Origin: Deltaproteobacteria bacterium
GTDB taxonomy: Bacteria; Desulfobacterota; Binatia; UBA9968; JAJDTQ01
NCBI GenBank assembly: GCA_026712905.1
Contig: JAPOPM010000175.1
Location: 4,419 to 68,418, forward strand
Direction of reading: 5' to 3'
Length of the DNA: 64,000 bases
Shown here: one piece after another, positions 17,597 to 38,425 of the stretch
Numbering within the stretch: position 1 is the stretch's first letter
Layout of the letters: each line of letters opens with the position of its first letter
Position numbers and translations under genes: made by a program
Notes under the pieces: generated by a model
Databases searched by the model: none
The model's input: the letters and a program-made list of their open reading frames with translations, nothing else
What the model was told of the DNA's origin: nothing

Positions 17597-17680
17597 GGCG
17601 GTTCGGGTGCCCGGCAAAGCACGGGCCGGGATTGGCGGGATTTATAGCCTCTACGGTCGTCGTTGACAATTCACACCATA

Positions 17681-18359: not shown

Positions 18360-18501
18360 ACCGCATGGTAGCGCATAGGCTACTTTTTGCAACCTTTGAC
18401 GGGGAGCGGGTCAATTCAAACCCGAGTGTGGCTGCATCGCCCTTACCTCCAACGAAACCCGCCTTGCCGTGCCACCCGCGCACTGCAAGAATGAAGCCCT
18501 C

Positions 18502-19107
18502 ATGACCATCGGGATTCTCGCGTATGGATCGCTGATTCCCAATCCGGGAGCGGAGATCGGACCTTTGACGGCGCGCCGGATCGGCGGTGTGGAGACGCCG
18601 TTTCGGGTGGAGTTCTCCCGCACCAGCCGCGTGCGCGACGGGGCGCCGACGCTGGTGCCGGTGGACCGGGGCGGGGCCAGGGTTACGGGGGTCGTGCTGG
18701 TGCTGCACGACTCGGTCACCGAGACCGCGGCCCAGGACATGCTCTACCGGCGGGAACGAAACCGGGTTGGCAGCGGCGATCGCTACGCGGACGTGGACCC
18801 GGACGACCCGGACAGTGCCTTTCTGGGGAGGTCCGACGGCTTCGCCGGGCTGGACGTGGTGTTCCACGCGGCGTTGCGGGCGAACATCGTGGAGCCGACG
18901 CCCGAACTGCTGGCGCGTCTGGCCATCGCGAGCGCCGCGGCGCCCTCGGGGGCCGTGGGCAGGGACGGCATCCGCTACCTCATGGACGCGATGCAGAGCG
19001 GCATCGGGACGCCGCTCATGCCGGAGTACGAAGCCGAAATCCTCCGCCAGACGGGCGGCCGCGACCTGGAGGAAGCCCGGACCATCGCCCTGGGCAGGTC
19101 GCGCTAG
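18502..19107 (+). CDS. ChaC-like gamma-glutamylcyclotransferase family protein
   Basis: IGILAYGSLIPNPG resembles the ChaC WIFGYGSLMWNP motif. Overall layout is similar to glutathione-specific gamma-glutamyl cyclotransferases. ATG at 18502; the track start is GTG. Confidence 0.55.
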   Translation: MTIGILAYGSLIPNPGAEIGPLTARRIGGVETPFRVEFSRTSRVRDGAPTLVPVDRGGARVTGVVLVLHDSVTETAAQDMLYRRERNRVGSGDRYADVDPDDPDSAFLGRSDGFAGLDVVFHAALRANIVEPTPELLARLAIASAAAPSGAVGRDGIRYLMDAMQSGIGTPLMPEYEAEILRQTGGRDLEEARTIALGRSR

Positions 19108-19124: not shown

Positions 19125-19282
19125 CTCGAAACAGCGGGAATCCAGGCGGCCGGGGCGGAGCCAACGCCCCGAAACGTCATTCCCGCGGAAGCGGGAATCC
19201 AGGCGGGGTGGTGGGGCACTACAGCGGCGTTTTTCCGCCTCGCCACCCCTGTATTCCCGCTTCCGCGGGAATGACGATTCGC
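19125..19282. repeat. Composite REP/MITE-like intergenic repeat, copy A (core palindrome GTCATTCCCGCGGAAGCGGGAATCCAGG and its inverted copy)
   Basis: Direct sequence comparison. The same 28-bp core and flanking modules recur at 24.1, 28.7, 46.7-47.0, 50.7, 52.4, 58.2 and 59.0-59.2 kb. Confidence 0.8.
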
Positions 19283-24104: not shown

Positions 24105-24305
24105 GACCGTGTCAAGACTCCGCTCGGATGAGAATTGGCACCAATGCCCCGAGTCGTCATTCCCGCGAAAGCTTGCCCTCGACCCCGATCGGGGGCGGGA
24201 ATCCCTGCCCCACCCCGCCTGGATTCCGGCTTCCGCGGGGATGACGTATTCGTCACGTCTCCGCCTGGCGGGTTTTGACACGGCCTGTTCCGCGGGAATG
24301 ACGAA
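24105..24305. repeat. Composite REP/MITE-like repeat, copy B
   Basis: Contains the tgtcaagactccgct module, the gtcattcccgcgaaagc core, the cccgatcgggggcgggaatcc module and an inverted core. Confidence 0.75.
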
Positions 24306-24325: not shown

Positions 24326-25465
24326 ATGATTGAATCGCTTGGTATCGCCCACCTCTTCGAACTCTCGCGCACGGAAGCGACGCTGGGGTTCTTTACCCCG
24401 CTGGTGATCTTCGCCGCGTTCTTTCTGGCGCAGATGGCCCTGCCGGCGAGGCGGGTTCCCGGCTACGTCATCGATCCGCGGACCGGCGCACCCCGCAGCT
24501 ATCGCCTGAACGGCCTTCTGGTATTCGCCATCGCGCTCGTCGTGTGGGCCTTCGAGCTCACTGGGATGCCGCGCGACTGGTTCTACCGGTCCTCGATTTA
24601 CGCCGTGGCCGGCGGGACCGTCGTCGCCACCCTCGTTACCATCATCGCGGTGTTCAGCCAGCCGCAAGGCAGGGTAAGGAACCCGCTGCTGGCGCTGTGG
24701 TTCGGTCGGGCCCAGGAGCTGGCGTTCCTGAACCAACGCTTCGACGTAAAGATGTACCTCTATGTGGTCGGCGGGGCGATGCTGTCCCTCAACGCCCTTT
24801 CCGGGGCCGTGTACCACTACGAGATCTTTGGCGAAGACTCCAATCCGGGCGTCTTCCTGTACGCGGCGTTCTTCACGTTCTACATACTGGACTACTTCAT
24901 CTTCGAGCGCGTCCAGCTATACACCTACGACCTGATCCATGAGAATCTTGGCTTCAAGTTGTTCTGGGGTTGCTTCGTCGTATACGGGTGGCTGTTCATT
25001 CTCCCGTTGTGGGGCATGGCCGCTTACCCGGATCCGGGATTCTCGCCGGCCTGGACGTATGTCTGGCTCATCGGAACGGCCGCGCTGTTCCTCCTCGGGT
25101 GGGGCATCTCGCGCGGCGCCAACATGCAAAAGTACACGTTCAAGCGTTGGCCCGACCGGAAGTTTCTCGGGCTCATCGAGCCTGTCTTCATCGAGGCCGG
25201 CGACCGCAAGATCCTGTGCAGCGGCCTATGGGGTGTCGCCCGCCACTTCAACTACCTGGGCGAGGGTTTCCTCGCCCTGTCCATCGCCCTGTCGTTCGGC
25301 TACTTCACCAATCCCTGGGCCTGGACCTACTTTGCCTTCATCGTCTCGATGTTCGTCTACCGTCAACGCGATGACGACATGCACTGTGCCGGAAAATACG
25401 GCGCCGACAAGTGGGCGGAGTATCAGGCAAGGGTGAAGTACCGGATCTGTCCGGGCATCTATTGA
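24326..25465 (+). CDS. ERG4/ERG24-family sterol reductase homolog (DHCR7/DHCR14/TM7SF2-like polytopic membrane reductase)
   Basis: C-terminal GLWGVARHFNYLGEG...YRQRDDDMHCAGKYGADKWAEYQARVKYRICPGIY matches the sterol-reductase family signature (RHPNYxGD...RDxxxCxxKYGxxWxxYxxxVPYRIIPxIY). Eight or more predicted TM segments. Confidence 0.7.
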   Translation: MIESLGIAHLFELSRTEATLGFFTPLVIFAAFFLAQMALPARRVPGYVIDPRTGAPRSYRLNGLLVFAIALVVWAFELTGMPRDWFYRSSIYAVAGGTVVATLVTIIAVFSQPQGRVRNPLLALWFGRAQELAFLNQRFDVKMYLYVVGGAMLSLNALSGAVYHYEIFGEDSNPGVFLYAAFFTFYILDYFIFERVQLYTYDLIHENLGFKLFWGCFVVYGWLFILPLWGMAAYPDPGFSPAWTYVWLIGTAALFLLGWGISRGANMQKYTFKRWPDRKFLGLIEPVFIEAGDRKILCSGLWGVARHFNYLGEGFLALSIALSFGYFTNPWAWTYFAFIVSMFVYRQRDDDMHCAGKYGADKWAEYQARVKYRICPGIY

Positions 25466-25496: not shown

Positions 25497-26969
25497 TCAC
25501 GCGCCCCCGGTGAGCCGTTGGTCCACGTGCCACATGGCGACGCAGTCGTCCTCGTTGTAGCGGACGGCCTTTTCGGCCAGGGAGCGGTCGCCGGTGTCGA
25601 CGGCGTCCCAGTAGCAGAGCAGCGCCTCGTAGGCGCCGAATCCCTGCTGGCGCCAGTTGAAGCCCAAGGCCGGGGCGACGCTCTTGATGGAGAAGCGCGG
25701 CACGGGCAGGTAGACGGCGTCCTGGATGCATCGCTTCAGGTCGACGCAGGAGCCCATGAGACGCGCCAGCCGTCCCTCCAGCCGCGGCCAGCGGCGCATG
25801 ACCGCCTTCATCTGCCACACCTCGTAGTCGGTCCAGTGATACAGGCGCACGGCTTCGAGGTCGTCGCCCACGTAGTCGAGGAATTCTTCGAAGATCTCCG
25901 CCTCGTCTTCGGGGCCACGGGCCAGGAACCTGACGAACTGGTCGCGGGAGCCGTCCCAGCAGCCGATGAGGTAGACGTGGGGCGGCATGGTGGGATGCGT
26001 GTCGTCGGAGGTCTCGAAGTCGAAGTAGAGTAGCCGTCTCGCCCTGGGAATCCGCAACTCGCGGCCGGGTTTGGGGACGGGTTGCCCCGTCCTGTAGCTC
26101 TGGGCCACGTGGTAGGCGGTGGCGCCGTGGTGCGGTCCCAGGATCTCCTCGGTCTCACCAAGGGAACTTGTCCACAGTTCATCCACATTGTGGATACCGG
26201 CGGCGCGGAGCTTGGCCCGCTCGGGCGCCCGCACCCCGGCCAGCAGCACCAGGTCGCGGCGCTCGTGCACCAGCCGGTTGCCGTACGCGCGCCAGGGGGA
26301 GTCGGTGACGTCGGGGGGTCTGCCCGGCTCCGGCTCCTCCACCGTACGGTCCCGCAGCGCGCACCAGCGCGCGGCTACGTCGTCCATCCTCTTCCCGAAG
26401 CCCGAGACATCCACCGGACGGACCTCTTCCCGCAGGGCCACGGTCACGCGTTCCGGCATGTAGCCCTGGACGGCGCCCACGGTGCGGTTGTAGAAGGCCG
26501 CCTGGAGCACGTAGGCGTCCCGAAGCTTGCGCGCGCGCTTTATCTCGATGACGCGATAGTGGTAGGGGCCGAGGTCCGAGGCGTGGCTGTCGTCCCGCAC
26601 CAAGAGGTCGCCGCGGCCGTAGACGTCCCGGCCGAGGTCCCACAGTTGCGGCTGGTGGATGGCGGGAACGCCCTCCAGCATGGCCCGAAGGGTGCGGACG
26701 AGGGCCTGGTGGCCGAAGTCGGGCCGGATGGCCAGGACGCCCGGGTAATGCGCGGCCACCCAGGCATCCTCGTGCTCGACGCCCCGGCGGTAGCGCATCT
26801 GCTCGTAGCGGCCGATCTCGTTTACCGCCTCGGCCTTGGGTGCATGGTGCTGGCACCAAACCCAGAACGGGTCCCGCAGAACCTTGTCCACCAGGGACGG
26901 GCGCAAGCGGGAGCGGCCATGGATCCTCTGGCCGGCGGTGGCGCGGTCGAGCAGCGCGCGCAGCCGCAC
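25497..26969 (-). CDS. RecB-family nuclease, TM0106-type (N-terminal PD-(D/E)XK/Cas4-like region plus C-terminal RNase H-like exonuclease domain)
   Basis: YFDFETS motif and a YHWTDYE region in the C-terminal half; conserved Cys (WVWCQHH) near the N-terminus. Start uncertain (GTG at 26967-26969 or TTG about 60 nt downstream). The first ~230 residues of track ORF 25497..27665 are low-complexity read-through over the AbgB-like gene. Confidence 0.55.
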   Translation of the reverse strand: MRLRALLDRATAGQRIHGRSRLRPSLVDKVLRDPFWVWCQHHAPKAEAVNEIGRYEQMRYRRGVEHEDAWVAAHYPGVLAIRPDFGHQALVRTLRAMLEGVPAIHQPQLWDLGRDVYGRGDLLVRDDSHASDLGPYHYRVIEIKRARKLRDAYVLQAAFYNRTVGAVQGYMPERVTVALREEVRPVDVSGFGKRMDDVAARWCALRDRTVEEPEPGRPPDVTDSPWRAYGNRLVHERRDLVLLAGVRAPERAKLRAAGIHNVDELWTSSLGETEEILGPHHGATAYHVAQSYRTGQPVPKPGRELRIPRARRLLYFDFETSDDTHPTMPPHVYLIGCWDGSRDQFVRFLARGPEDEAEIFEEFLDYVGDDLEAVRLYHWTDYEVWQMKAVMRRWPRLEGRLARLMGSCVDLKRCIQDAVYLPVPRFSIKSVAPALGFNWRQQGFGAYEALLCYWDAVDTGDRSLAEKAVRYNEDDCVAMWHVDQRLTGGA

Positions 26970-26992: not shown

Positions 26993-28438
26993 TTAGCTGA
27001 ATGCGGGCTTCTCCTTGGGATAGTGCGCTTCCATGGCCGAGCGGTAGCGCTCCATGAGGATCCGGTTGAGCTCCAGCGGCGGCTGCTGGTCGTCGGGCAG
27101 CAGCGGGCGGTACTCCACGTCGCCGATCTCCTCCTTGAAGGTCTCCTTGGCCCGGGCCACCAGTTGCGGGTCCATCAGCAGGTCGACGGCCGACGCGGCC
27201 ATGGTCTTGGCGCCGGCCACCGCGCCCTTGTGGGCCACGGTGGTGGCCAGGGACACCCCCGCGCCCCAGTGGTGGTAGGCGATGCCCGGGATGTTGGACG
27301 GGAAATTCACCACGCCCGAGGGCACCACCCAGCACACGTCGCCCGAGTCGTTGGCGGACACGGACTGCACCGCCTCCCGGAGCTGGGCCACCTGTGTGGG
27401 CATTCCCGTGGCCTTGACGTTGACCTTGGCCTGGACGTCGGTGACGAGTTTCTGTTCGGCGTCGCTCCACCGCGGCATGCCCACGGCCTCGATGTTCTGC
27501 TGGATCACCTCCGCCAGCACGCGGTTGCAGCGGGTGGGCGCCACCGCGCTCAGCACGTTCACCGAGTAGGAAGTGTCGGTCATGGTGGCCGCTCCCTGGG
27601 CGACGCGCTTGGCCTTCTCGAACAAAGCGCGGGCCTTCTCGGCCGTGGCCTCGCGGAAGAACCACCAGATGGTCGAAGTGTTGGGGATGACGTTGGGCTG
27701 GTCGCCGCCGTTGGTGATGACCCGGTGGCTACGCTGGGAGGGCTCCAGGTGTTCCCGAAGCTTGTCCCAGCCGATGTCCATCAGCACCGTCGCGTCCACC
27801 GCGTCGCGCGCGTTCCACGGCGAGGTGGCGGCGTGGGCGCTCTCGCCCTTGAAGGTGAACTCGGCCGAGATGAGCGCGTACTGGCGCAGACCGTACACCG
27901 TGCCGAGGTTGGAGCCGATGTGGTCGTGCAGCGCCACGTCCACGTCCTTGAAATAGCCGTCGCGCACGAAGTACGGCCGGCTCACGAGCTGCTCCTCGGC
28001 CGGGGCGCCGTAGACCCGGAGCGTCCCCTGGATGTCGAACTGCTCCATGGTCTTCTTGACCGCCACCGCCGCCCCGGTCATCACCGCAGCGTTGACGTTG
28101 TGCCCTTCGGTGTGCCCCGGCGCACCGTCCACGATGGCCTTTTGCTCGGCCACGCCCGGCATCTGCGAGCTCGACGGCGTGGCATCGAACTCCGTGTGCA
28201 GCGCCACCACCGGCTTGCCCGACCCGTAGGTGGCGATGAACGCCGTGGGCATCCCCGAGATGCCCCGCTCGATCTCGAAGCCCGCCCGCTCCAGGATCTC
28301 GGTCATGAGCCCAGTGGTGCGGTATTCCTGCATCCCCAGCTCGGCGAAGTAGAAGATATTGTCGCCGAGGAGCGCGATGTTGTTCCGGTTCTCCTCGACC
28401 GCGTCGATGACGAACTGTTTCTGTTTCGAATCCTGCAT
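26993..28438 (-). CDS. M20-family amidohydrolase, AbgB-like (aminobenzoyl-glutamate utilization protein B family)
   Basis: 481 aa from the internal ATG (MQDSKQKQFVIDAVEE...), preceded by GGGGAGGAAACC. Strong similarity pattern to AbgB (GKPVVALHTEFDA, HAATSPWNARDAVDATVLM, VAHKGAVAGAKTMAAS). The track N-terminal 155 residues run through repeat copy C. Confidence 0.8.
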   Translation of the reverse strand: MQDSKQKQFVIDAVEENRNNIALLGDNIFYFAELGMQEYRTTGLMTEILERAGFEIERGISGMPTAFIATYGSGKPVVALHTEFDATPSSSQMPGVAEQKAIVDGAPGHTEGHNVNAAVMTGAAVAVKKTMEQFDIQGTLRVYGAPAEEQLVSRPYFVRDGYFKDVDVALHDHIGSNLGTVYGLRQYALISAEFTFKGESAHAATSPWNARDAVDATVLMDIGWDKLREHLEPSQRSHRVITNGGDQPNVIPNTSTIWWFFREATAEKARALFEKAKRVAQGAATMTDTSYSVNVLSAVAPTRCNRVLAEVIQQNIEAVGMPRWSDAEQKLVTDVQAKVNVKATGMPTQVAQLREAVQSVSANDSGDVCWVVPSGVVNFPSNIPGIAYHHWGAGVSLATTVAHKGAVAGAKTMAASAVDLLMDPQLVARAKETFKEEIGDVEYRPLLPDDQQPPLELNRILMERYRSAMEAHYPKEKPAFS

Positions 28439-28661
28439 GGTTTCCTCCCCTGGGCGCGGCGGCCGGAGGCGCGTCACGGCGGCTCCGGCGGGCCAGCCCT
28501 CATGGCATGCGCGGATCATATTACAAGGAGGGGGGCGCGTCGACACCCGCCGTCCAGGCTGTGTCCATGCCCCGCTCGGACCAGCAACGGCGCGGATCCC
28601 CTCTCCGTCCGGACACGTAAACGATTCGCCCCTTCTTGGCTCAGACACAGGGACGGCACGG

Positions 28662-28878
28662 ACTCCCGAAACGTCATTCCCGCGGAAGCTTGCCCTCGAC
28701 CCCGATCGGGGGCGGGAATCCAGGAGGGGTGAGGCGGGGAATACGGCCGCTTGGCCCCTCCCCGCCCCTGGATTCCCGCCCCCGATCGGGGTCGAGGGCA
28801 AGCTTTCGCGGGAATGACGTTTCGGGGCGTTGGTACTTCGGGGGTATTGACACAGCTTGTACCGCCGGAATGACGGAG
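28662..28878. repeat. Composite REP/MITE-like repeat, copy C (near-palindromic overall)
   Basis: aaacgtcattcccgcggaagcttgccctcgaccccgatcgggggcgggaatccagg ... cctggattcccgcccccgatcggggtcgagggcaagctttcgcgggaatgacgttt; the two halves are inverted copies. Confidence 0.8.
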
Positions 28879-28953
28879 AGGTGGAATGACCGTCATAAGA
28901 CATCGTTGCCGTGAAACTTGCCCGACCTTCCCGGACGTTATAAGGTCGCTTCC

Positions 28954-30408
28954 ATGTCGACGAATCGGCCTGTCATCCGGGGCGCGGCCACCGCCCTCGC
29001 TCACACCCCGAGCTTGGTCCGCTACGGCTCCAAGCCGTTCCGCGAAGCCCAGGCCCGCCCGGACTTCCTGGCGGAGCTGGCGCGGAACCTGTGGAGCTAC
29101 GACGACGCGTGCCGATACCTGCCGAACCAGGTGTTCATCGGAAGCCGGTCGCCGGCGCGGCTGTGGGAGGTGGAGCAGCCCTGGTTCGACAAGCTGGCCG
29201 ACGCGGACGGCGGCGACCCGCCCTTCGGGCACATCATGGACGAACGGCGTTTCCTCGCCTTGCTGGCCTGCGCGGACCCGTTCAAGCACGTACTGCTGCG
29301 GGAACGGTTCTGGGACGAGATGGGTCCGGTTCTGGAATCCGCGCCGCTCACGGCGCCGCTGACCGCCAGGACGCCGGCGCTGCTCACCGATGCGCAGATG
29401 GACGCCGAGCTGGAGTCCGCCGACAGCCTGCCGCTCTTCGCCGGGGGCGAAGGCGCGCCCGTGGGAGTCGTGAAGACGGGCCACTCCGAGGACGAAGCGC
29501 TCTCCGCATCGGTGCTGCTGGAAAACCTCTGCTGCAAGGTCTCGGGCGCCCTGGCCGTGCACGAACTGCTGAACCACGTCGACGGCCTGGGCCCGGGCGA
29601 CGTCGACCTGGTGCTGAGTTGCTCGGAGGAAGCGGTGGGCGACCGCTACCAGCGCGGCGGCGGCAACCTGGCCAAGGCCATCGCCGAGTTCGCGGGCTGC
29701 GATCTCGGCACCGGCATCGACATCAAGGACTTCTGTGCCGCGCCAATTCCCGCCATGGTCATCGGCGCTTCGCTGGTGGAGAGCGGCGTGTTCGAGAACG
29801 TCGTCGTGGTGGGCGGCGGTTCGCTTCCCAAGCTCGGGATGAAGTCCCTCTACCACCTCGAACAAGGCATCCCGGTGCTGGAGGACGCGCTGTCCGCGGT
29901 GGCCGTGTGGATCGGCCGCGACAACGGCAGCAGCCCGACGGTGAATTTGCAAGCCGTCGGACGCCATCCCGTCAAGGCCGGCGCCGCCCTCGACAAGCAG
30001 TTCCGGGAGCTTGTTCTGGAGCCGCTGAGGCGGCTAGAATGGGGCGTCGACCGGCTCGACCGCGTGGTCACCGAGCTGCACAACCCGGACATCACCGTGG
30101 CCGCCAAGGCCGGCGACGTGGCCGCCCGCAACTACAAGATGATGGCCGCCATGCTCGCCATGGCCAAGGAGATCGACCGCAGCGACATCGCCGGCTTCGC
30201 CCGCGCCAAGGGCGTGTGCGGCTACGCCCCCACTCAAGGGCACATCGCCTCGGGTTTCGTGTACGTGCCCCACGCGCTGCGGGAGATGGCCGCCGGGAAC
30301 ATCCGGAACTGCATGCTGGTGGCCAGGGCGAGCCTATTCCTGGGCCAGATGACCGAGCTGACGGACGGAATGTCGGTGCTGATCGAACGGAACGGCGCGT
30401 CTCAGTAG
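28954..30408 (+). CDS. Glycine/sarcosine/betaine reductase complex component C-like protein (GrdC-like, thiolase/PlsX-like fold)
   Basis: About 484 aa from the ATG (MSTNRPVIRGAATALAHTPSLV...). It lies immediately upstream of grdA. Motifs CSEEAVGDRYQRGGGNLAKAIAEFAGC, NVVVVGGGSLPKLGM, NPDIT, NYKMMAA, APTQGHIASG and SLFLGQMTELTDG resemble what I recall of GrdC. This assignment is made from memory and not verified by alignment. Confidence 0.55.
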   Translation: MSTNRPVIRGAATALAHTPSLVRYGSKPFREAQARPDFLAELARNLWSYDDACRYLPNQVFIGSRSPARLWEVEQPWFDKLADADGGDPPFGHIMDERRFLALLACADPFKHVLLRERFWDEMGPVLESAPLTAPLTARTPALLTDAQMDAELESADSLPLFAGGEGAPVGVVKTGHSEDEALSASVLLENLCCKVSGALAVHELLNHVDGLGPGDVDLVLSCSEEAVGDRYQRGGGNLAKAIAEFAGCDLGTGIDIKDFCAAPIPAMVIGASLVESGVFENVVVVGGGSLPKLGMKSLYHLEQGIPVLEDALSAVAVWIGRDNGSSPTVNLQAVGRHPVKAGAALDKQFRELVLEPLRRLEWGVDRLDRVVTELHNPDITVAAKAGDVAARNYKMMAAMLAMAKEIDRSDIAGFARAKGVCGYAPTQGHIASGFVYVPHALREMAAGNIRNCMLVARASLFLGQMTELTDGMSVLIERNGASQ

Positions 30409-30490
30409 CGCTCAACCTTACGAAAATACGGGACTTTTACACGGATAGGGCTACTACAAGAATTGACCCTACCAAAACGAGGAGGACCCC

Positions 30491-30961
30491 ATGTCGGCAC
30501 AACCCATCACCCTCAACGGCAAAAAGCTCATCATCCTCGGCGAACGGGACGGCGTCCCCGCCCCGGTCATCCAACAGGCCATCGCTGGACTGGGAGGCGA
30601 AGTCGCGTACGCCGCCACCCAGTGCTTCGTTTGAACAGCCGCTGGGGCCATGGACCTTGAGGATCAAGGTCGAATAAAAGAACTCGCGGAAGCCTACGGA
30701 AAAGACGACATCGTGGTGCTGCTCGGCGCCCCCACAACCGAGAGCAGCCAGGTCCAGTTCGAGACCGTTACCACCGGCGACCCCTCCTACGCCGGCCCCC
30801 TCGCCGGCGTGGAACTCGGGCTCCCGGCCTACCACGTCTTCGAGCCCAACGTGAAAGCCGCCATCGACCCCGCCCAGTACGCCGAGAACATCGAGATTCT
30901 GGAAATGGGGCTGGAGGCGGACGCCATCGTGGACGCGCTGGCGGGGATGCGGGCGGGGTAG
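30491..30961 (+). CDS. grdA: Glycine/sarcosine/betaine reductase selenoprotein A (GrdA), with selenocysteine encoded by in-frame TGA at 30632-30634
   Basis: ATG at 30491 is preceded by GAGGAGG. Translation gives [59 protein letters not shown]...ETVTTGDPSYAGPLAGVELGLPAYHVFEP..., the GrdA architecture including the CxxU redox motif. The track shows only the C-terminal piece (30650..30961) because of the UGA. Confidence 0.9.
30653..30671 (+). promoter_or_regulatory. SECIS-like stem-loop downstream of the grdA UGA (GACCTTG-AGGAT-CAAGGTC)
   Basis: Perfect 7-bp stem with a 5-nt loop beginning 18 nt 3' of the UGA codon. Position and shape fit a bacterial selenocysteine insertion element, but the full element has not been modelled. 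Confidence 0.4.
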
Positions 30962-30967
30962 ACGTAA

Positions 30968-31105
30968 CGCGGCAAGGGAAGTCACCTCACGTTGTACTAC
31001 GGCGGTCGGAAGACCATCGTGAAGGATCGCCGGAAGGAGATTAGCCGGAGTCTTCTCGCCGCCAGGATCCGCCAGCTTGGACTCGATCCGAATGACCTTA
31101 GGTAG
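30968..31105 (+). pseudogene. hicA: hicA toxin remnant (5'-truncated; encodes only the C-terminal ~45 residues GKGSHLTLYYGGRKTIVKDRRKEISRSLLAARIRQLGLDPNDLR)
   Basis: In the same frame as grdA, beginning right after its TAG and a TAA. Matches the C-terminal half of HicA (GSHxxxxHP...KxLxxGTLRxILKQAGL) but lacks the N-terminal ~20 residues and any start codon. Confidence 0.6.
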
Positions 31106-31124
31106 GGTAGGAGTAAGGATCGTT

Positions 31125-31553
31125 ATGCAATTTCGCTATCCAGCCAGACTCCAAGCGGACCCCTCGGGAGAACTCGTTGTCTCCTTCCGGGACTTCCCCG
31201 AGTGTCTCACGTCTGGAGCCGATCAAGCCGAAGCACTCGTTGAGGCGCGGGACGCGCTTGAAGAAGCCGTCGCCGGCCGCATTGACGACGACGAGCCGAT
31301 CCCAACGCCAAGCCGACGGCGCACCGGCGAACATCTGATCGCGGTGCCGCCCGATATGGCGGCAAAGGCCGCGTTCGTCCTCGCTTTACGTGCCAGCGGG
31401 TTGTCGCGCAACGCATTTGCACAGCGCCTCGGTGTCGACGAGAAGGTCGTACGCCGGATGCTCGACCCACGGCACCACACCGCCGCCAACCGGATTCACA
31501 AAGCGTTGCGAGTGCTGGGACAGGAACTCATCGTCGAATCTCACGCGGCATGA
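31125..31553 (+). CDS. hicB: HicB-family antitoxin
   Basis: MQFRYPARLQADPSGELVVSFRDFPECLTSGADQAEALVEARDALEEAV is the classic HicB N-terminal domain, followed by a C-terminal HTH-like domain. AGGAG ribosome-binding site; ATG is internal to the track ORF. Confidence 0.75.
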   Translation: MQFRYPARLQADPSGELVVSFRDFPECLTSGADQAEALVEARDALEEAVAGRIDDDEPIPTPSRRRTGEHLIAVPPDMAAKAAFVLALRASGLSRNAFAQRLGVDEKVVRRMLDPRHHTAANRIHKALRVLGQELIVESHAA

Positions 31554-31598
31554 CCGGCGCGGCGGTTCTGGGAGCTCGTCCTTGAGCCGTTGCGGGGT

Positions 31599-31994
31599 CT
31601 ACAGGGTCGGGACGAGCCGGGACTGGATGATGCGCGCGTCGCGTGTCAGCACCGTTGCGCCGAGAAGCTGTGCCGAGGCGACAATGACCCGGTCGGCCGG
31701 GTCGCGATGAAAGGCGGCGGGAAGGGCGGCCACGGCCGCGGCAACCGCGGGTGAGATGCCGACCCGCTGCACCAAGGGCGGGGCGGTCGCAGCCTCGAGC
31801 CACTCCCTCAGCGGCAAATGAAACGAGATCCGCTTGAGGTTGTACAGCGTGGCAATCTCCCACAGGCTGATGTCGGAAACCCACAGCGGATTCTCGGGAC
31901 CGGCCTCTCGAAGGACTTCTTCCTGCTCCGCCGAAAGATGGCGGTCCGCGCCCATCCAGTGAATCAGAATGTGTGTATCGAGGAGCGCCTTCAC
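31599..31994 (-). CDS. vapC: PIN-domain toxin VapC
   Basis: 131 aa; MKALLDTHILIHW start (GTG) with PIN acidic residues. Overlaps the phd stop by 4 nt (GTGA). Confidence 0.8.
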   Translation of the reverse strand: MKALLDTHILIHWMGADRHLSAEQEEVLREAGPENPLWVSDISLWEIATLYNLKRISFHLPLREWLEAATAPPLVQRVGISPAVAAAVAALPAAFHRDPADRVIVASAQLLGATVLTRDARIIQSRLVPTL

Positions 31995-32239
31995 CCCGTC
32001 TTCCCCGCCTCGGCCTCCCAGAAGTCGGCATCCAGGACCGGCCCCACAATATCTCCGTGTACCTCCACCGTTCCAAAAAGCGCATGCTGCGGGTAGCGGT
32101 GCTGCCTGGGGACCGGCGGGACAAGCTGGGCGACCGGCTTGCCGCGTTTCAGGATCGTAACCGCCTGTCCCGTCTGTACGACTTCATCGAGGATGGCCAA
32201 GCACTTTGCCTTGAATTCCGAGGCATTGATTTCCTTCAT
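31991..32239 (-). CDS. Phd/YefM-family antitoxin (VapB-type partner)
   Basis: 82 aa; MKEINASEFKAKCLAILDEVVQTGQAVTILKRGKPVAQLVP matches the Phd/YefM signature. Confidence 0.75.
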   Translation of the reverse strand: MKEINASEFKAKCLAILDEVVQTGQAVTILKRGKPVAQLVPPVPRQHRYPQHALFGTVEVHGDIVGPVLDADFWEAEAGKTG

Positions 32240-32309
32240 GTGACCAGACTATATGACTAGTCAATGGAAATCAACGCAAGGCATGGAACCATGCAGAAGG
32301 AGACCCACC

Positions 32310-33125
32310 ATGGCAAACCACATCCAAGGACCCCTCTACTACGAGCGCATGGGCCGCACCGGCCCGGTGATGGCGTTCATCCATCCGAACCCGATGGACC
32401 AGTCGTGCTGGATCTTCCAGATGGCGCATCTGTCGACATGGTACCGGTGCATATCCATCGACATTCCGGGGTATGGGCGGTCGCCGAAGGCAGAGGCGGG
32501 GCTGACCATGGATGACATGGCAGAGGCGTGCTGGGAGGCCATCGACGACGCGACGCCCGGGGAGGATGCCATCCTGGTGGGCTCTTCGGTGGGATCGGCC
32601 ATCGCCCCGTACATGTATCACCAGCATCCGGACCGGACGAAGGCGATCATCCTGTCGGGCAAGGGATATTCCACCGACAAGAGCAACTTCCAGCGGCGCA
32701 TCGACACCTACCGCGCCAACGGCATCGGCTTTCGCTGGAGGTACACGTTCGAGGACTTGAGCCCGGCGTTCCGCGCGACGCCGCTGGCGCATTTCTTCGC
32801 CAACCTGTTCACCGAACGCAACGAGTTCGCGGATGTGGACACGATCTGTCACCAGTTCGGCGCGCTTCAGGAGCAGGAACCCGAGGGCCATTACTCAGGC
32901 ATCGGGTGCCCGGTCACCATCCTCACCGGCAGCGAGGACAACGCCCATCTGCGCTCGTTCGCCTTGCAGGCACAAATACCGGGTTGCGAGTTGAAGGTGT
33001 TGCCCGGTGCCGGGCACGCATGCCAGATGGAGCAGCCCTGGCTGTACGACCGCTTCATGATCGAGTTCCTCACCAAATACGGCCTGTTTCCGAAAACGCC
33101 GAAGCCGGCTTCTTCCGGATTCTGA
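32310..33125 (+). CDS. Alpha/beta hydrolase (paralog 1)
   Basis: GSSVGS nucleophile elbow; MANHIQGPLYYERMGR start preceded by GAAGGAG. Close paralog of 37560..38375. Confidence 0.75.
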   Translation: MANHIQGPLYYERMGRTGPVMAFIHPNPMDQSCWIFQMAHLSTWYRCISIDIPGYGRSPKAEAGLTMDDMAEACWEAIDDATPGEDAILVGSSVGSAIAPYMYHQHPDRTKAIILSGKGYSTDKSNFQRRIDTYRANGIGFRWRYTFEDLSPAFRATPLAHFFANLFTERNEFADVDTICHQFGALQEQEPEGHYSGIGCPVTILTGSEDNAHLRSFALQAQIPGCELKVLPGAGHACQMEQPWLYDRFMIEFLTKYGLFPKTPKPASSGF

Positions 33126-33175
33126 ACCGGAGGCCTCCAACCGCGCCTTCCCACCTGTCCGAGTGCCACGAGGCT

Positions 33176-33204
33176 AGGCCGGGGACCGTTCGAAACCCCG
33201 GCCT
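33176..33204 (+). terminator. GC-rich hairpin downstream of hydrolase paralog 1 (AGGCCGGGG-11 nt-CCCCGGCCT), possible intrinsic terminator without a T-tract
   Basis: 9-bp perfect stem located 50 nt after the stop codon; no U-run, so tentative. Confidence 0.3.
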
Positions 33205-33327
33205 GGCCTACGCAGGTTAGACAACCAAATGTAGTAGGCTACTTTGTTAGACTGGCCAGATGTAGTGTGCTAGCCTTCCTGTTGGAAGCCGTTCAGTAAC
33301 CGTCCACACCCATGGGAGGCCTCGGAC

Positions 33328-34950
33328 ATGCTTGAAACATCCGCAAGGCATCGCCCCGGAACATCCACCCGGACGCTGTTCATCGTCCTCATCGCCGCGT
33401 TGCTGCTGGGGGTTTCCTCCGCCCACGCGGCCACGAACATCCTTCAGCGGGGCAACGGAGCGGAGCCGGAGACCCTCGACGTGCACAAGTCGTCGGGCGT
33501 GCCCGAGGCGAACATCCAGCGCGACCTGTTCGAGGGGCTGGTGGCGGAGGGAGCGGACGGTTCCATCATTCCGGGGGTGGCGGAGAGCTGGAGCCTGAGC
33601 GAGGACGGCAAGGTCTACACCTTCCGGCTGCGGCGGAACGCCAAGTGGTCCAACGGGGACCCGGTGACGGCCCATGACTTCGCGTTCGCGCTCACGCGGG
33701 GGGTGGACCCGTCGGTGGGCTCGGACTACGCGTTCATCCTGTGGCCCATCGCCAACGCGGAGGAAATCACCAAGGGCAAGGTCAAGGAACTGGGGCGGCT
33801 CGGGGTGAAAGCGGTGGACGCGCACACGCTGAAGTTGACCCTCAAGGCGCCCACGCCCTACTTCATCGGGCTCCTGACGCACCACCAGGCGTACCCGGTG
33901 CATCGCAAGACCCTGGAGCAACACGGCGACAAGTGGACCCGGGCCGGCAACATGGTCTCCAACGGGGCCTACCAACTGGCGGAATGGGTGCCCCAAAGCC
34001 ACGTGCGCCTGGAGCGCAATCCCCACTACTGGGACGCCGCCAACGTGCGCATCGACGCGGTGGTGTTCCACCCGACGGAGGACAAGAGCACCGAGCTGAA
34101 GAGGTTCCGGAGCGGCGAGATGGACGTCACCTATGACGTGCCCATCGACCAGATCGGATGGGTGGAGAAGAACCTCGCCCAACAGTTCCGCAACACCGCG
34201 TATCTGGGCACTTACTACTACTCCCTCAACCTCACCAAGACGCCGTTCCGCGACCGGCCGGGGCTGCGCAACGCGCTGGCCATGACCATCGACCGGGAGA
34301 TCCTCACCGGGAAGGTCACCAAGGGCGGCGAGATCCCCGCCTACGCCTGGGTGCCGCCGGGCGTGAACCAGTACGCGGGCGCGAAGGTACCCTGGCAGGG
34401 CCTATCCAAGGCCGAACGCCTGGCCAGGGCGAAGAAGCTCTACGCCGAGGCCGGCTACTCCAAGGACAACCCGTTGAAGGTGCAGATCCTGTACAACACC
34501 AGCGAGAGCCACAAGCGCATCGCCATCGCCATCGGCGGCATGTGGAAAAAGGCCCTCGGCGTCCAGACCGAGCTCTTCAACCAGGAATGGAAGGTCTACC
34601 TCACCACCCGGCGGGCGAAGCAGTTCGACGTGCTCCGGGCCGGCTGGATCGGCGACTACAACGACGCCAACACCTTTCTGGAGCTGCTCAAGGGCACCGT
34701 CGGCACCATGAACCCGGCGGGCTACGCCAGCTCCGAGTACGACGCCCTCATGCAAAAGGCCGAAACCGAAACCGACCTGCAGGCGCGGGCGAAGCTCATG
34801 CAGAAGGCGGAGAGCATCCTGCTCGCGGACATGCCCATCATCCCCATCTACCACTACACGACCCAGCACCTGGTGAACCCGCGGGTCAAGGGATGGGTGG
34901 ACAACGTCATGGACGTGCACCCGACCCGGCATTTGTCGCTGGCGCCGTGA
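33328..34950 (+). CDS. Peptide/nickel ABC transporter substrate-binding protein (SBP family 5, OppA/DppA-like)
   Basis: 540 aa; signal peptide, family-5 SBP motifs; GGGAGG ribosome-binding site. Confidence 0.85.
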   Translation: MLETSARHRPGTSTRTLFIVLIAALLLGVSSAHAATNILQRGNGAEPETLDVHKSSGVPEANIQRDLFEGLVAEGADGSIIPGVAESWSLSEDGKVYTFRLRRNAKWSNGDPVTAHDFAFALTRGVDPSVGSDYAFILWPIANAEEITKGKVKELGRLGVKAVDAHTLKLTLKAPTPYFIGLLTHHQAYPVHRKTLEQHGDKWTRAGNMVSNGAYQLAEWVPQSHVRLERNPHYWDAANVRIDAVVFHPTEDKSTELKRFRSGEMDVTYDVPIDQIGWVEKNLAQQFRNTAYLGTYYYSLNLTKTPFRDRPGLRNALAMTIDREILTGKVTKGGEIPAYAWVPPGVNQYAGAKVPWQGLSKAERLARAKKLYAEAGYSKDNPLKVQILYNTSESHKRIAIAIGGMWKKALGVQTELFNQEWKVYLTTRRAKQFDVLRAGWIGDYNDANTFLELLKGTVGTMNPAGYASSEYDALMQKAETETDLQARAKLMQKAESILLADMPIIPIYHYTTQHLVNPRVKGWVDNVMDVHPTRHLSLAP

Positions 34951-35003
34951 TGCCCCCGGCGTTCCGTCCGAGGCTCCCGGAGGCCTGACCACCCAAATTT
35001 CCC

Positions 35004-35930
35004 TTGTGGACCTACGCGATACGGCGGTTGGCGTCGGCGGTGCCGACCCTCTTCATCATCATCGCCATCGCCTTCTTCATGATCCGGCTGGCGCCGGGCG
35101 GTCCCTTCGACCGGGAGCGGGTGGTCCCGCCTGAGATCTCGGCCAACCTGAACCGCGTCTACCACCTCGACGAGCCCCTGCCGCAACAGTTCCTCCGCTA
35201 CCTCAAGGGCCTCGCCCGCGGCGACTTCGGCCCGTCCTTCAAGTACCGCGACTTCACCGTCACCGAGCTCATCGCCGCGGGCTTCCCGGTGTCGCTCAAG
35301 ATCGGCCTCCTGGCCATGGCCGCGGCGTTGCTGCTCGGGGTCGGCCTTGGCGCATGGGCGGCGCGGCGGCGCAATTCCCTCGCGGACCACCTGGTCATGG
35401 GGCTTGCCATGACCGGCGTCGCGGTGCCCAACTTCGTGGTGGCGCCGCTCTTGTCGCTGGTCATCGGCGTCTACCTGAACCTCCTGCCCGTGGGCGGGCT
35501 GGGGGACGGCGGCATCCGCCACCTGCTGCTGCCCGTGATCTCCCTGGCCCTGCCCCAGGTGGCCTACATCGCGCGCCTCTCGCGCGGCAGCATGCTCGAA
35601 GTGCTGAACGCCGACTACATCCGCACCGGCCGCGCCAAGGGGCTCACGGAACGGCGCATCGTCTTCCGCCACGCCCTCAAGAACGCGCTCACGCCGGTGG
35701 TATCCTACCTCGGCCCGGCCACCGCGGCCATCATCACGGGTTCGGTGGTGATCGAGCAGATCTTCGGCATCCCCGGCCTCGGCCGCTACTTCGTGCAGGG
35801 CGCCCTCAACCGCGACTACACCCTGGTGATGGGGGTGGTGATCACCTACGGCACGCTCATCATCGCCCTCAACCTGGTCGTGGATCTGCTCTACGGCGTC
35901 CTCGATCCACGGGTGCGGTCACATGAATAG
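35004..35930 (+). CDS. ABC transporter permease (OppB/DppB-like)
   Basis: 308 aa; N-terminal MWTYAIRRLASAVPTLFIIIAIAFFMIRLAPGGPFD matches DppB; EAA loop; TTG start. Confidence 0.85.
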   Translation: MWTYAIRRLASAVPTLFIIIAIAFFMIRLAPGGPFDRERVVPPEISANLNRVYHLDEPLPQQFLRYLKGLARGDFGPSFKYRDFTVTELIAAGFPVSLKIGLLAMAAALLLGVGLGAWAARRRNSLADHLVMGLAMTGVAVPNFVVAPLLSLVIGVYLNLLPVGGLGDGGIRHLLLPVISLALPQVAYIARLSRGSMLEVLNADYIRTGRAKGLTERRIVFRHALKNALTPVVSYLGPATAAIITGSVVIEQIFGIPGLGRYFVQGALNRDYTLVMGVVITYGTLIIALNLVVDLLYGVLDPRVRSHE

Positions 35931-35971
35931 CGTCATGAAGCCATCCATGAGGCCGCACCCAAAGGTGCGTC

Positions 35972-36868
35972 ATGATTGAGGCCGCGACCGCGACCGGAAG
36001 CCGCCGGGCGACGCCCGCCGCGGGCCGGAGCCCCTGGCGCGACGCCGCGACCCACCTCCGGCGGAACCGCGCCGCCATGGCCGGCCTCACAACGTTGTGC
36101 GTGCTCGCCGTCCTCTCGGTGGCCGTCCCCATGCTCTCGCCCTACGCCATCGACGAGATCTTCTGGGACGCCATCGGCACCGGCCCCAGCCTGGGTAGCG
36201 GCCACCCGTTCGGCACCGACGCCAACGGCCGGGACCTGCTCCTGCGCACGCTCTACGCCGGACGCATGTCCCTCTCGGTAGGGCTCGCCGCGTCGGTGGT
36301 TAGCGTCCTGGTAGGAGTGTTCTGGGGCACCGTGTCGGGATACGCCGGCGGCACCACCGACTCCTTGATGATGCGCTTCGTGGACATCCTCTACGCCCTG
36401 CCCTTCATGTTCTTCGTGATCCTGCTGATGGTCTACTTCGGGCGCCACGTGGTGCTGATCTTCGTCGCCATCGGCATGGTGGAGTGGCTGGACATGGCGC
36501 GCATCGTGCGTGGCGAAACCCTCTCCCTCAAGCGCCGGGAGTTCGTCGAGGCCGCCCGGGCCATGGGCGCGGCGCCGGCGTGGATCGTCCTGCGCCACGT
36601 CATTCCCAACGTCGTCGGCCCCGTGGCGGTCTTCGCCACCCTCACCGTCCCCCGCGCCATCCTGTTCGAGAGCTTCCTGAGCTTTCTCGGCCTGGGCATC
36701 CAGGAACCCATGACGAGCTGGGGCGTGCTGATCAGCGAAGGCGCCACACAGATGGAAACCCAACCCTGGGCGCTCATCTTCCCAGCCACCTTCCTCGCCG
36801 CCACCCTCTTCAGCCTGAATTTCCTGGGCGACGGCCTGCGCGACGCGCTGGATCCGAAGCAGCGGTAA
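35972..36868 (+). CDS. ABC transporter permease (OppC/DppC-like)
   Basis: 298 aa; BPD_transp_1 domain. No ATP-binding subunit gene follows. Confidence 0.85.
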   Translation: MIEAATATGSRRATPAAGRSPWRDAATHLRRNRAAMAGLTTLCVLAVLSVAVPMLSPYAIDEIFWDAIGTGPSLGSGHPFGTDANGRDLLLRTLYAGRMSLSVGLAASVVSVLVGVFWGTVSGYAGGTTDSLMMRFVDILYALPFMFFVILLMVYFGRHVVLIFVAIGMVEWLDMARIVRGETLSLKRREFVEAARAMGAAPAWIVLRHVIPNVVGPVAVFATLTVPRAILFESFLSFLGLGIQEPMTSWGVLISEGATQMETQPWALIFPATFLAATLFSLNFLGDGLRDALDPKQR

Positions 36869-36916
36869 CCGGACGGACTTGCGCGCACGCGCGACGGACC
36901 GCGTAAGCAAACCCGG

Positions 36917-37252
36917 TCAAGCCGTTGCCAAGACGCGGGAGAGGGCCGTCCTGATGGCGCGGGCGTCCCGCGTCGACAACGAGCCGATCCTGCGAACGAT
37001 CATACCGTCATCAACGGTGAAGAGCTTGAAGCGGACCTTGCAGGGGACACTGAGGCCCACTCCCTGCCAGTCCTGAATATCCACGTCACTCGGCCAGGGG
37101 GCACGCACCGAGGTGATCATGGTCAAGATCGATTGTTCGTGAGCGGCGTTGAAGTCCGCCGATGAGACGACCAGGGCTGGCCGACGCTTGCTGGTCTCGC
37201 GGTCCGCGAAAGGGAAAGGGACGACGACCACGTCGAGCGTGTCAAAGGTCAC
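36917..37252 (-). CDS. mazF: PemK/MazF-family toxin (endoribonuclease)
   Basis: 111 aa; VVVVPFPFADRETSKRRPALVV motif; GTG start overlapping the mazE stop. Confidence 0.75.
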   Translation of the reverse strand: MTFDTLDVVVVPFPFADRETSKRRPALVVSSADFNAAHEQSILTMITSVRAPWPSDVDIQDWQGVGLSVPCKVRFKLFTVDDGMIVRRIGSLSTRDARAIRTALSRVLATA

Positions 37253-37466
37253 GCCACGCTTCCTCGTCCTCGGGAGAGACCCATTCGCTGAGGACTTCGG
37301 AGAGACCCTTCAGGTAGTCGTCCTCTGCCGGAATGACCTTGCGAACCACGACATGATCATCCGCGACCTCGAAAGTGATCAAATCACCCTCCCGGAGGTT
37401 CGCCGCCTGGCGTATCTTCTTGGGAATCGTCGTCTGCCCGCGTGAGGTAATCTTGGCGAGTTCCAT
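37242..37466 (-). CDS. mazE: AbrB/MazE/SpoVT-family antitoxin
   Basis: 74 aa (MELAKITSRGQTTIPKKIRQAANLREGDLITFEV...), the 3' tail of track ORF 37242..38330. The rest of that ORF is antisense to the hydrolase gene. Confidence 0.65.
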   Translation of the reverse strand: MELAKITSRGQTTIPKKIRQAANLREGDLITFEVADDHVVVRKVIPAEDDYLKGLSEVLSEWVSPEDEEAWRDL

Positions 37467-37559
37467 TTGCCTGCCCCCGAACATACAGAATATAAGCAAT
37501 ACAGAATTTCGGTGCAACCACGGGCGAACGGTTCTGAACCACCGCAACGGAGGAACATC

Positions 37560-38375
37560 ATGGCAAACAACGTTGAAGGACCACTCTACTACGAACGCAT
37601 GGGGCGTGAGGGGCCGGTCATGGCCTTCATCCATCCCAACCCCATGGACCAGTCGTGCTGGATCTTCCAGATGGCGCACCTGTCCACCTGGTACCGGTGC
37701 ATCAGCATCGATATCCCGGGGTACGGACGCTCGCCCAAGGGAGCCGAGGGGCTCAGCATGGACGACATGGCCGCGGCGTGCTGGGAGGCGGTGGACGATG
37801 CGCTGCCGGGAGAGACCGCCATCCTCGTGGGCTGCTCCACGGGTTCGGCCATCAGCCCCTTCATGTACCACCAGCGTCCCGACCGCACCGCCGCCATGAT
37901 CCTGACGGGCACGGGCTACACTCACGGCAAGGAGTTCGCGCAGCGGCGCATCGACGCCTACACGGCCTTGGGGGTCGACTACCGCTGGCGTTACACCTTC
38001 GAGGACCTGAGCCCGGCATTCCGCGCGACTCCGCTGGCGCATTTCTTTGCCAACCTGTTCGCGGAACGGAACAAGTTCGCGGACGTGGAGACCATCATCC
38101 ACCAGTTCCGGGCGCTGCAGACGCAGGAACCCGAGGGGCATCACGCGCGCATCGCCTGCCCGGTCATCATCCTCACCGGCAGCGAGGACGGCGCCCATCC
38201 CACCGCCTTCGCGCTGCAGGAGCGTATCCCGGGCTGCGAGCTTAAAGTGCTGCCCGGAGCCGGCCATGCCTGCCAGATCGAACAGCCCTGGCTCTTCGAT
38301 CGCTTCATGATCGAGTTCCTGGACAAGCACGGCCTCTTCTCGGGGGATCCCAAGCCGCTGGCGGCGGGGTTCTGA
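37560..38375 (+). CDS. Alpha/beta hydrolase (paralog 2)
   Basis: MANNVEGPLYYERMGREGPVMAFIHPNPMDQSCWIFQMAHLSTWYRCISIDIPGYGRSPK is near-identical to paralog 1 over long stretches. GGAGGAACATC ribosome-binding site. Confidence 0.75.
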   Translation: MANNVEGPLYYERMGREGPVMAFIHPNPMDQSCWIFQMAHLSTWYRCISIDIPGYGRSPKGAEGLSMDDMAAACWEAVDDALPGETAILVGCSTGSAISPFMYHQRPDRTAAMILTGTGYTHGKEFAQRRIDAYTALGVDYRWRYTFEDLSPAFRATPLAHFFANLFAERNKFADVETIIHQFRALQTQEPEGHHARIACPVIILTGSEDGAHPTAFALQERIPGCELKVLPGAGHACQIEQPWLFDRFMIEFLDKHGLFSGDPKPLAAGF

Positions 38376-38425
38376 GCGGGCGCGGCGTTTGACCGGCGCG
38401 GCCCGCTGCTCTTATTCTGGCGGAC

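Follow-up and report, generated by a model that had tools for sequence, protein, structure and literature searches.

The genes grdC and grdA, which encode the component C β subunit and selenoprotein A of glycine/sarcosine/betaine reductases, lie side by side in a 64 kb stretch of DNA (66% GC) from a Deltaproteobacteria bacterium assigned to the Binatia (assembly GCA_026712905.1, contig JAPOPM010000175.1, positions 4,419 to 68,418), here termed the window. An initial annotation, made from the sequence alone, had described a GrdC-like gene followed by grdA and had proposed either that the pair arrived as a mobile fragment in a hicAB toxin-antitoxin locus or that it forms a minimal redox module of another reductive pathway. 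Profile matches, an in-frame UGA codon and its adjoining hairpin establish that both gene identities are real, and the C-then-A order is as claimed. The arrangement of the same genes in relatives indicates, however, that grdC-grdA is vertically inherited and kept functional, and is not a mobile insert. The pair and its upstream neighbours display the following features (loci and contigs of related genomes are designated by L numbers).

25497-26960, minus strand: TM0106-family RecB-like putative nuclease gene (Pfam RNase_H_2; start codon approximate)
26993-28441, minus strand: M20-family amidohydrolase/peptidase gene, 481-482 residues, divergent from grdC
28515-28543, minus strand: candidate M20 promoter TCGACG-17-TATGAT, sigma-70-like, from a consensus scan only
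28917-28953, plus strand: grdC promoter-like motif CTTGCCCG-N13/14-TTATAAGGT, conserved in relatives
28954-30408, plus strand: grdC, 484 residues, component C β subunit (NCBIfam, Pfam)
29530-29532, 29698-29700 and 30310-30312: codons of GrdC Cys193, Cys249 and Cys453, conserved cysteines specific to Binatia
30436-30485, plus strand: promoter-like site and ribosome-binding site within the 82-nt grdC-grdA spacer
30436-30463, plus strand: promoter-like TTTACA-16-AAGAAT of this spacer
30479-30485, plus strand: grdA ribosome-binding site GAGGAGG of this spacer
30491-30961, plus strand: grdA, 156 codons, selenoprotein A (NCBIfam, Pfam)
30632-30634, plus strand: in-frame TGA of grdA
30653-30671, plus strand: hairpin GACCUUGA-GGA-UCAAGGUC, beginning 21 nt past the U of UGA and resembling a selenocysteine insertion sequence (SECIS)

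GrdA, searched with a query in which selenocysteine (U or Sec) was written as cysteine plus one extra residue, matches the NCBIfam model reduct_selen_A with 202.5 bits (threshold 130) and the Pfam family GRDA at 2e-59. The TGA constitutes codon 48 and falls within C-F-V-U-T-A-A-G, a CxxU motif. Since its stem is unchanged at every nucleotide, synonymous sites included, in seven relatives whose GrdA proteins are only 67-90% identical to that of the window, the downstream hairpin behaves as a working bacterial SECIS would; the hairpin of L009 differs by a single base in the loop. Rfam returned no SECIS or other family above threshold and no match for the grdA hairpin.

GrdC matches the NCBIfam equivalog reduct_C_beta with 507.8 bits (cut-off 450) over model positions 1-476 of 477, and the Pfam families DUF5940 (1.2e-42) and ACP_syn_III. 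Two cysteines, Cys223 and Cys261, are common to all aligned GrdC proteins. The GrdC profile places the invariant Cys261 on the acyl-accepting cysteine of both β-ketoacyl-acyl carrier protein synthase III (KAS III; PDB code 1mzj) and the FadA thiolase (PDB code 4b3h), a likeness to the thiolase/KAS III superfamily that is local and weak (E ~2e-4). A search of the PDB revealed no solved GrdC, and the rest of the protein, including DUF5940, is without a solved relative. GrdC is predicted to adopt a thiolase/KAS III-like fold in which Cys261 serves as the acyl-accepting nucleophile. Cys193, Cys249 and Cys453, which are conserved in all the Binatia GrdC proteins aligned, are absent from the GrdC proteins of Enterococcus and Acetoanaerobium.

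The grdC and M20 genes are separated by 512 nt in the window. In nearly all of L014-L038 the spaced motif upstream of grdC is kept within the 40 nt that precede the gene, while the surrounding sequence varies. The grdC ATG lies 9-10 nt beyond the -10-like hexamer TTATAAGGT and is not preceded by a Shine-Dalgarno sequence; from this proximity and absence we infer that grdC has its own promoter and is transcribed as a leaderless or near-leaderless mRNA. The region had been described as an AT-rich leader, a description at odds with its composition (64% GC at 28600-28999, against the window mean of 66%). The spacer between grdC and grdA ranges from 22 to 194 nt among relatives.

Related loci were collected by scanning GTDB species genomes with one chimeric GrdC+GrdB alignment and the patterns RYLPNQVF (GrdC) and DNYFHEH (GrdB). 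This returned 25 species, mostly labelled Candidatus Binatia, whose GrdC proteins are 79-94% identical. These species (within L014-L038) represent the window's lineage and include 17 closed chromosomes, with a single grdC-grdA locus apiece; among the closed chromosomes of L014-L038 are OZ253480.1, OZ244869.1, OZ220712.1, OZ241976.1, OY282432.1, OZ219754.1 and OZ251459.1. A GrdC protein identical to that of the window is found on 13 other public contigs. The grdC-grdA pair occurs in all 25 species. In 23 of them the 10 kb upstream of grdC include the M20 gene, which directly adjoins grdC in 22, the species in which it is not near grdC being L035 and L037, and the nuclease gene stands beside the M20 gene in 22 species as well as in L010, L011, L012 and L086. 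In all, the block in which the nuclease and M20 genes point away from grdC and grdA is present in about 30 related Binatia genomes, the 17 closed chromosomes among them, and it persists in deeper relatives with GrdC identities of 74%, 72%, 63% and 62%, where the outer flanks are unrelated. The M20 proteins of the relatives are 76-97% identical. Pairwise ratios of nonsynonymous to synonymous divergence (dN/dS) are 0.10-0.22 for GrdC, 0.06-0.36 for GrdA and 0.07-0.17 for M20, with dS saturated in the deeper comparisons; purifying selection also acts on the nuclease gene, despite saturated dS. Together, the shared synteny and the low dN/dS values argue that the grd pair has been transmitted vertically as functional genes.

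Base composition points in the same direction. A comparison of 28.9-31.0 kb with its flanks had been suggested; grdC is native in its G+C content at third codon positions (GC3, 0.91) and grdA is within the window range (0.81; window mean 0.877, standard deviation 0.045). The low values belong to toxin-antitoxin genes, namely hicB (0.68), the hicA remnant (0.74) and Phd (0.75). Thus, the grd pair is of native composition, while the toxin-antitoxin genes are the compositional outliers. Pfam scans, which took in about 50 plausible open reading frames of the window, identified no integrase or transposase flanking grdC-grdA.

Downstream of grdA the window contains the two hic genes that had suggested an insertion.

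30968-31105, plus strand: hicA remnant, 45 codons, without the start codon and first 26 codons of its L029 counterpart
31125-31553, plus strand: hicB antitoxin gene, intact open reading frame

As stated initially, the truncated hicA begins two codons past the grdA stop, in the same reading frame, and is followed by an intact hicB. The 5′ loss is also real, although it comprises 26 codons rather than about 20. The remnant aligns with positions 17-58 of 58 of Pfam HicA_toxin (22 bits; gathering score 27), while hicB scores 25.7 bits against HicB-like_2, below the gathering score of 30, its product retaining both the N-terminal domain and the helix-turn-helix. Four relatives (L016, L019, L029 and L030) carry, in this order behind grdA, a roughly 100-nt spacer with the palindrome GGACAG(A/T/C)TCTGTCC, an intact hicA of 71 codons that starts with GTG, and hicB. 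The L029 interval carries two GCGGCA hexamers, the first situated 10 nt inside the spacer and the second within codon 27 of hicA, and in-silico removal of the 177 bp between them leaves exactly the 169 nt of the window, with 8 mismatches. This comparison identifies the hicA truncation as a simple repeat-mediated deletion of 177 bp. The deletion took the hicAB promoter/operator together with 26 toxin codons; the remnant is predicted to be non-functional, and its sharing of a reading frame with grdA is a coincidence. As hicB has lost its own promoter and no terminator-like site was found between grdC and hicB, its transcription probably depends on read-through from grdC-grdA.

The hicB gene is 94-99% identical in seven relatives, in four of which an intact hicA precedes it, and shows a dN/dS of 0.05 relative to L007. 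The relatives resemble HicAB type II toxin-antitoxin systems in their hicA-hicB order and upstream palindromic operator. In contrast, the toxin gene of the window is truncated at its 5′ end and without a promoter, leaving the antitoxin as the sole survivor. Separate hicA deletions with hicB kept are present in L027 (12012-12101; same chromosome as L007) and L028 (12009-12106), so that toxin loss with antitoxin retention is observed repeatedly, in the window, L027 and L028. Only 8 of the 25 lineage species contain hicB, and hicAB without grd is found at none of the loci. The gain of the hicAB module behind grdA would date from within the crown group.

The upstream side of grdC contains a repeat, likewise invoked in the insertion proposal, of the repetitive extragenic palindromic (REP) kind.

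28665-28826: REP-like palindrome with 70-nt arms and a 22-nt centre; related sequence continues to about 28881
About 19161-19281, 24140-24303, 46663-46995, 50692-50784, 52394-52479, 58194-58216 and 59048-59154: further copies or fragments of the same family

The 162-bp palindrome, whose arms are 94% complementary, separates the candidate promoter of the M20 gene from the promoter motif of grdC. The family occupies at least eight other intergenic sites within the window, where none would be expected by chance for the core. The palindrome upstream of grdC is absent in relatives whose M20-grdC intergenic region measures 136-149 nt. The element is intergenic, dispersed, multi-copy and hairpin-forming, like REP sequences and bacterial interspersed mosaic elements, while being long for a REP (162 bp with 70-nt arms). 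It is a genome-wide REP-like element inserted between the M20 and grdC promoters, and is uninformative on grd mobility. The repeat had been said to bound the cassette; its presence upstream is correct, but there is one upstream copy only, with none between grdA and hicB. The palindrome also gave rise to spurious Rfam matches to miRNA families at 28694-28798, none of which came near the gathering scores.

These findings bear on three explanations that would deprive the pair of a resident function or of its apparent arrangement. Disruption of a pre-existing hicAB locus, whether by a mobile grd fragment or by a rearrangement, was suggested by the truncated hicA that abuts the grdA stop and by the repeat upstream. 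In four relatives, however, grdC-grdA is followed by an intact hicA-hicB, an arrangement which the initial annotation had itself set against its proposal and which refutes it; the 177-bp internal deletion suffices to explain the window, and comparable deletions arose independently in L027 and L028. No lineage locus presents a hicAB site without grd genes: grdC-grdA is universal in the lineage and hicB is patchy. With native grd composition, outlying toxin-antitoxin genes, a one-sided, dispersed repeat and no mobility genes, an insertion is highly improbable. Hardly better placed is the idea that the pair is a decaying, non-functional relic of a lost grd operon. The local absence of partner genes would agree with it, but dN/dS values of 0.06-0.36 have been maintained over saturated synonymous divergence, the reading frames are intact in about 30 genomes, and the UGA, the SECIS and the promoter are all conserved. 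An assembly artefact that split the pair from a full operon could be suspected from the short-read contigs, because all five independent ones compared (L001-L005) terminate inside the palindrome copy at 28665-28826. Independent assemblies and 17 closed long-read chromosomes show the same arrangement, which reduces this to a negligible probability. The locus is a clean case in which the decay of a toxin-antitoxin module next to a conserved operon mimics an insertion breakpoint.

The partners of grdC and grdA in known reductases were searched by tblastn, using GrdB and GrdE of a Binatia relative and GrdD, GrdI, GrdH, TrxB and thioredoxin (Trx) of the Enterococcus gilvus betaine reductase operon as queries. 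None of GrdB, GrdE, GrdD, GrdH, GrdI, Trx and TrxB is encoded in the 64 kb, and the Pfam domains GRDB, Gly_reductase, FA_synthesis and thioredoxin are likewise missing among the roughly 50 scanned open reading frames. The earlier statement that grdB, grdE, grdD and thioredoxin genes are lacking around the pair therefore extends to the whole window. Flanks of up to 10 kb on each side were examined around the Binatia loci, and tblastn identified no GrdD, TrxB or Trx at any of these loci, which number more than 80. With a threshold of E<=1e-4, GrdD matched only two Firmicute reference loci, in a search that covered loci and not whole genomes; housekeeping copies of the trx and trxB genes, which are not linked at the Binatia loci, may exist elsewhere in the genome.

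A sister clade, with GrdC 56-60% identical and metagenome-assembled genomes (MAGs) labelled Deltaproteobacteria or Binatia, displays a fuller operon, [NMT1-type binding protein]-grdB(Sec)-grdE-grdC-grdA, often preceded by additional grdE and NMT1 paralogues. Examples are L009 (GCA_016210115.1, JACQUW010000020), L040-L045, L049 and L050. These B-E-C-A operons are similar to the window in GrdC (58-60% identity) and GrdA (63-69% identity), in the C-then-A order, in having neither grdD nor trx, and in a GrdA with Sec and an identical SECIS stem. They differ in carrying grdB(Sec)-grdE and NMT1-type genes directly upstream, with no M20 gene, whereas the window's lineage has no B, E or NMT1 genes locally and carries the M20 and RecB-like nuclease genes next to the pair. 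In a neighbour-joining tree of GrdC the orphan and B-E-C-A clades are sisters, far from the Firmicute proteins, and L010, the basal member of the B-E-C-A clade, combines nuclease-M20-grdC-grdA with a convergent grdE at the contig end. The sister relation and this basal layout indicate that the C-then-A order and the absence of GrdD are ancestral in Binatia; the M20 adjacency probably is as well. What is peculiar to the window's lineage is that no B or E gene is nearby.

The sister-clade MAGs also carry further grdB/grdE loci without grdC-grdA, MAG JACQUW01 having five GrdB loci. Up to five grdB/grdE loci are present per MAG, each beside NMT1-type genes, and this multiplicity suggests that many substrates may share a single GrdC-GrdA pair in the sister clade. 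All Binatia GrdB proteins (L009 7341-8681 and about 40 others, L039-L083) contain Sec within U-G-T-C-S-R-S, a UxxCxxS motif as opposed to the canonical UxxCxxC.

The canonical system used for comparison was the trxB-trx-grdA-grdC-grdD-grdI-grdH-BCCT operon of Enterococcus gilvus pCR1A. The window shares with Firmicutes reductases the CxxU motif and SECIS of GrdA (53% identity) and a full-length GrdC (39% identity to that of Enterococcus gilvus) containing Cys223, Cys261 and the motifs CSEEA.GD..QRGGGN and APTQGHI. In contrast, Binatia loci contain no grdD, trxA or trxB and have the order C then A, and in the window's lineage no protein B gene is linked. The window GrdC lacks the C-terminal extension of about 30 residues found in Firmicutes and has the three clade-specific conserved cysteines, and its host appears from its genome to be an aerobic heterotroph.

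Within about 15-110 nt downstream of grdA, the three deepest orphan relatives carry a gene of roughly 203 codons that encodes an AhpD-like "peroxidase-related enzyme".

L011, 11952-12563: AhpD-like gene
L086, 8244-8885: AhpD-like gene
L012, about 10416-11024: AhpD-like gene with a frameshift

Its product matches TIGR01926 with 122.9 bits (cut-off 81.8) and contains an in-frame TGA within NACGY-U-SVSHG, again a CxxU motif, so that L011, L086 and L012 carry two consecutive selenoprotein genes, grdA and then the AhpD-like gene. Neither the window nor the crown-group flanks contain this gene, which therefore cannot be counted within the window locus.

Clostridial reductases of glycine, sarcosine and betaine belong to strict anaerobes; in these enzymes protein B moves a carboxymethyl group onto the selenol of GrdA, protein C makes an enzyme-bound acetyl thioester and then acetyl phosphate, and GrdA is re-reduced by thioredoxin. 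By analogy, Sec48 of the window's GrdA would carry a carboxymethyl group delivered by a protein B of the GrdB/GrdE type encoded elsewhere, and GrdC may accept the two-carbon unit as a thioester on its putative thiolase-type Cys261. Since GrdD is absent, GrdC itself would probably release the acetyl group, either to CoA, as superfamily relatives do, or to phosphate, and Cys193, Cys249 and Cys453 are candidates for making up for the absent GrdD. Oxidised GrdA would be re-reduced by a housekeeping thiol system. The canonical scheme is summarised in PMC13188914; other detail given here goes back to the work of Andreesen and of Abeles.

The interpretation favoured here, with moderate confidence, is that grdC-grdA forms a vertically inherited, functional chromosomal operon of a Binatia-type reductase whose protein B is encoded elsewhere. 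That protein B lies elsewhere, or that the function is otherwise canonical, is itself considered fairly probable, and a distant partner is the simpler assumption because sister-clade grdB/grdE loci are routinely unlinked from grdC-grdA. Several observations weigh against this interpretation. No protein B gene is found within 10 kb of grdC in any of the 25 lineage species, and the 17 closed chromosomes contain no GrdB of the DNYFHEH type, although this single clade-specific motif misses divergent paralogues. In clostridia, acetyl-thioester formation and acetyl-phosphate release were reportedly assigned to GrdD and not to GrdC (Kohlstock et al. 2001). The AhpD-like CxxU selenoprotein that follows grdA in three basal relatives hints at a redox partnership outside the canonical scheme. 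Finally, grdH was undetected in sponge MAGs including Binatota (Ramirez et al. 2023; PMC9999580), which lends weak support to absence. With regard to the motif scan, the same DNYFHEH pattern revealed up to five GrdB loci per sister-clade MAG, but both secondary GrdB paralogues whose detection had not depended on the motif deviate from it (DNFFAEH and DNYFHEQ), and the canonical Firmicute GrdB and GrdH do not contain it either; divergent B genes would therefore escape the scan. When L009 GrdB was compared with a set of 5.8 billion proteins, all 120 matches listed were sister-clade relatives, 67-100% identical.

The rival that GrdA and GrdC work in this lineage without any protein B of the GrdB/GrdE type is regarded as rather unlikely. 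The selenol of GrdA might be loaded by alkylation with an α-halo acid or another carboxymethyl donor, for which it counts that chemically carboxymethylated selenoprotein A, according to Arkowitz and Abeles, is said to be a substrate of protein C; or the pair might serve as a redox couple of selenol and thiol, in which the M20 enzyme or the AhpD-like CxxU protein may take part. Such independence would agree with the lack of a B or E gene near grdC, which extends to the four deeper relatives, and of a core-type GrdB on the 17 chromosomes, while the pair, its Sec and its SECIS are still under purifying selection. It would also agree with an M20 adjacency that persists down to 62% GrdC identity, with the AhpD-like gene behind grdA in L011, L012 and L086, and with window genes (molybdenum hydroxylases, luciferase-like monooxygenases, amine oxidase) unlike those of a Stickland fermenter. 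The genome-wide part of this case, however, depends on one exact seven-residue motif that is absent in paralogues and in canonical GrdH and GrdB, and the sister clade normally has unlinked B/E loci. Furthermore, the M20 gene is missing near grdC in L035 and L037, and M20 enzymes have no known biochemical tie to GrdA. A protein B encoded at a distance thus remains the preferred explanation.

A whole bacterial class, the Binatia, possesses a differently built system, with no GrdD, no linked thioredoxin, a C-then-A order and a UxxCxxS motif in GrdB, and one of its lineages, as at least 17 closed genomes show, keeps only the substrate-independent half, with a peptidase gene as its neighbour. We found no description in the searchable literature of orphan grdC/grdA genes, of grd genes in Binatia or of GrdD-less systems. 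To our knowledge, GrdA has no described role other than to carry the carboxymethyl group from protein B to protein C in clostridial glycine/sarcosine/betaine reductases. If protein B were absent genome-wide, this would be the first GrdA/GrdC working outside the classical reductase. A long-kept Sec-containing GrdA and a GrdD-less GrdC without protein B would then form a selenol-based module in an apparent aerobic heterotroph, loaded for instance by electrophilic carboxymethyl donors of the haloacetate kind, recycled perhaps by an AhpD-like CxxU selenoprotein, and with GrdC releasing the two-carbon unit as acetyl-CoA instead of acetyl phosphate, a possibility that is put forward tentatively and considered unlikely.

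On the upstream side, the nuclease matches PF13482 (1.2e-24) and TIGR03491 (179.9 bits; cut-off 97.45). The M20 protein scores 201.3 bits against TIGR01891 (threshold 153.75), and its closest solved relatives are HmrA, an Xaa-Arg dipeptidase and an aminobenzoyl-glutamate utilization protein. The M20 neighbour pointed out initially is therefore a real gene, whereas its suggested link to the pair amounts to conserved synteny only. A second supposed supplier, a "ChaC-like" open reading frame at 18469-19107, has no Pfam or NCBIfam match, and its link to grd is baseless; it encodes 212 residues, has a high GC3 and occupies the same position beside a gene for a carbon monoxide dehydrogenase-type flavoprotein in L086. 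Unusually for a bacterium, the open reading frame at 24326-25465 is a member of the ERG4/ERG24 sterol-reductase family (Pfam 4.3e-32).

Elsewhere the window contains two sets of aerobic-type molybdenum hydroxylase genes (CoxS/M/L-like), one at 8664-9137 with 14333-17617 and the other at 53182-56887, as well as TctABC transporters, two luciferase-like monooxygenases and an amine oxidase. By its gene content the window looks like part of an aerobic heterotroph, an odd host for a selenoprotein of the glycine reductase type.

Beyond hicB lies a further toxin-antitoxin pair.

31599-32239, minus strand: PIN (VapC-like) toxin and Phd/YefM antitoxin genes (Pfam PIN 62.3 bits, PhdYeFM 37.2 bits)

The interval from grdA to a gene for an FMN-dependent dehydrogenase (30962-38400) constitutes a variable island rich in toxin-antitoxin genes, which holds the orphan hicB, PIN/Phd, PemK/MazE, two α/β-hydrolase genes and a peptide-type ABC importer. 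In L037 the island is missing and the FMN_dh gene directly follows grdA, while in L007 and L008 its position is taken by defence-type genes (AAA_21/DUF4276 and SNF2/DUF1156).

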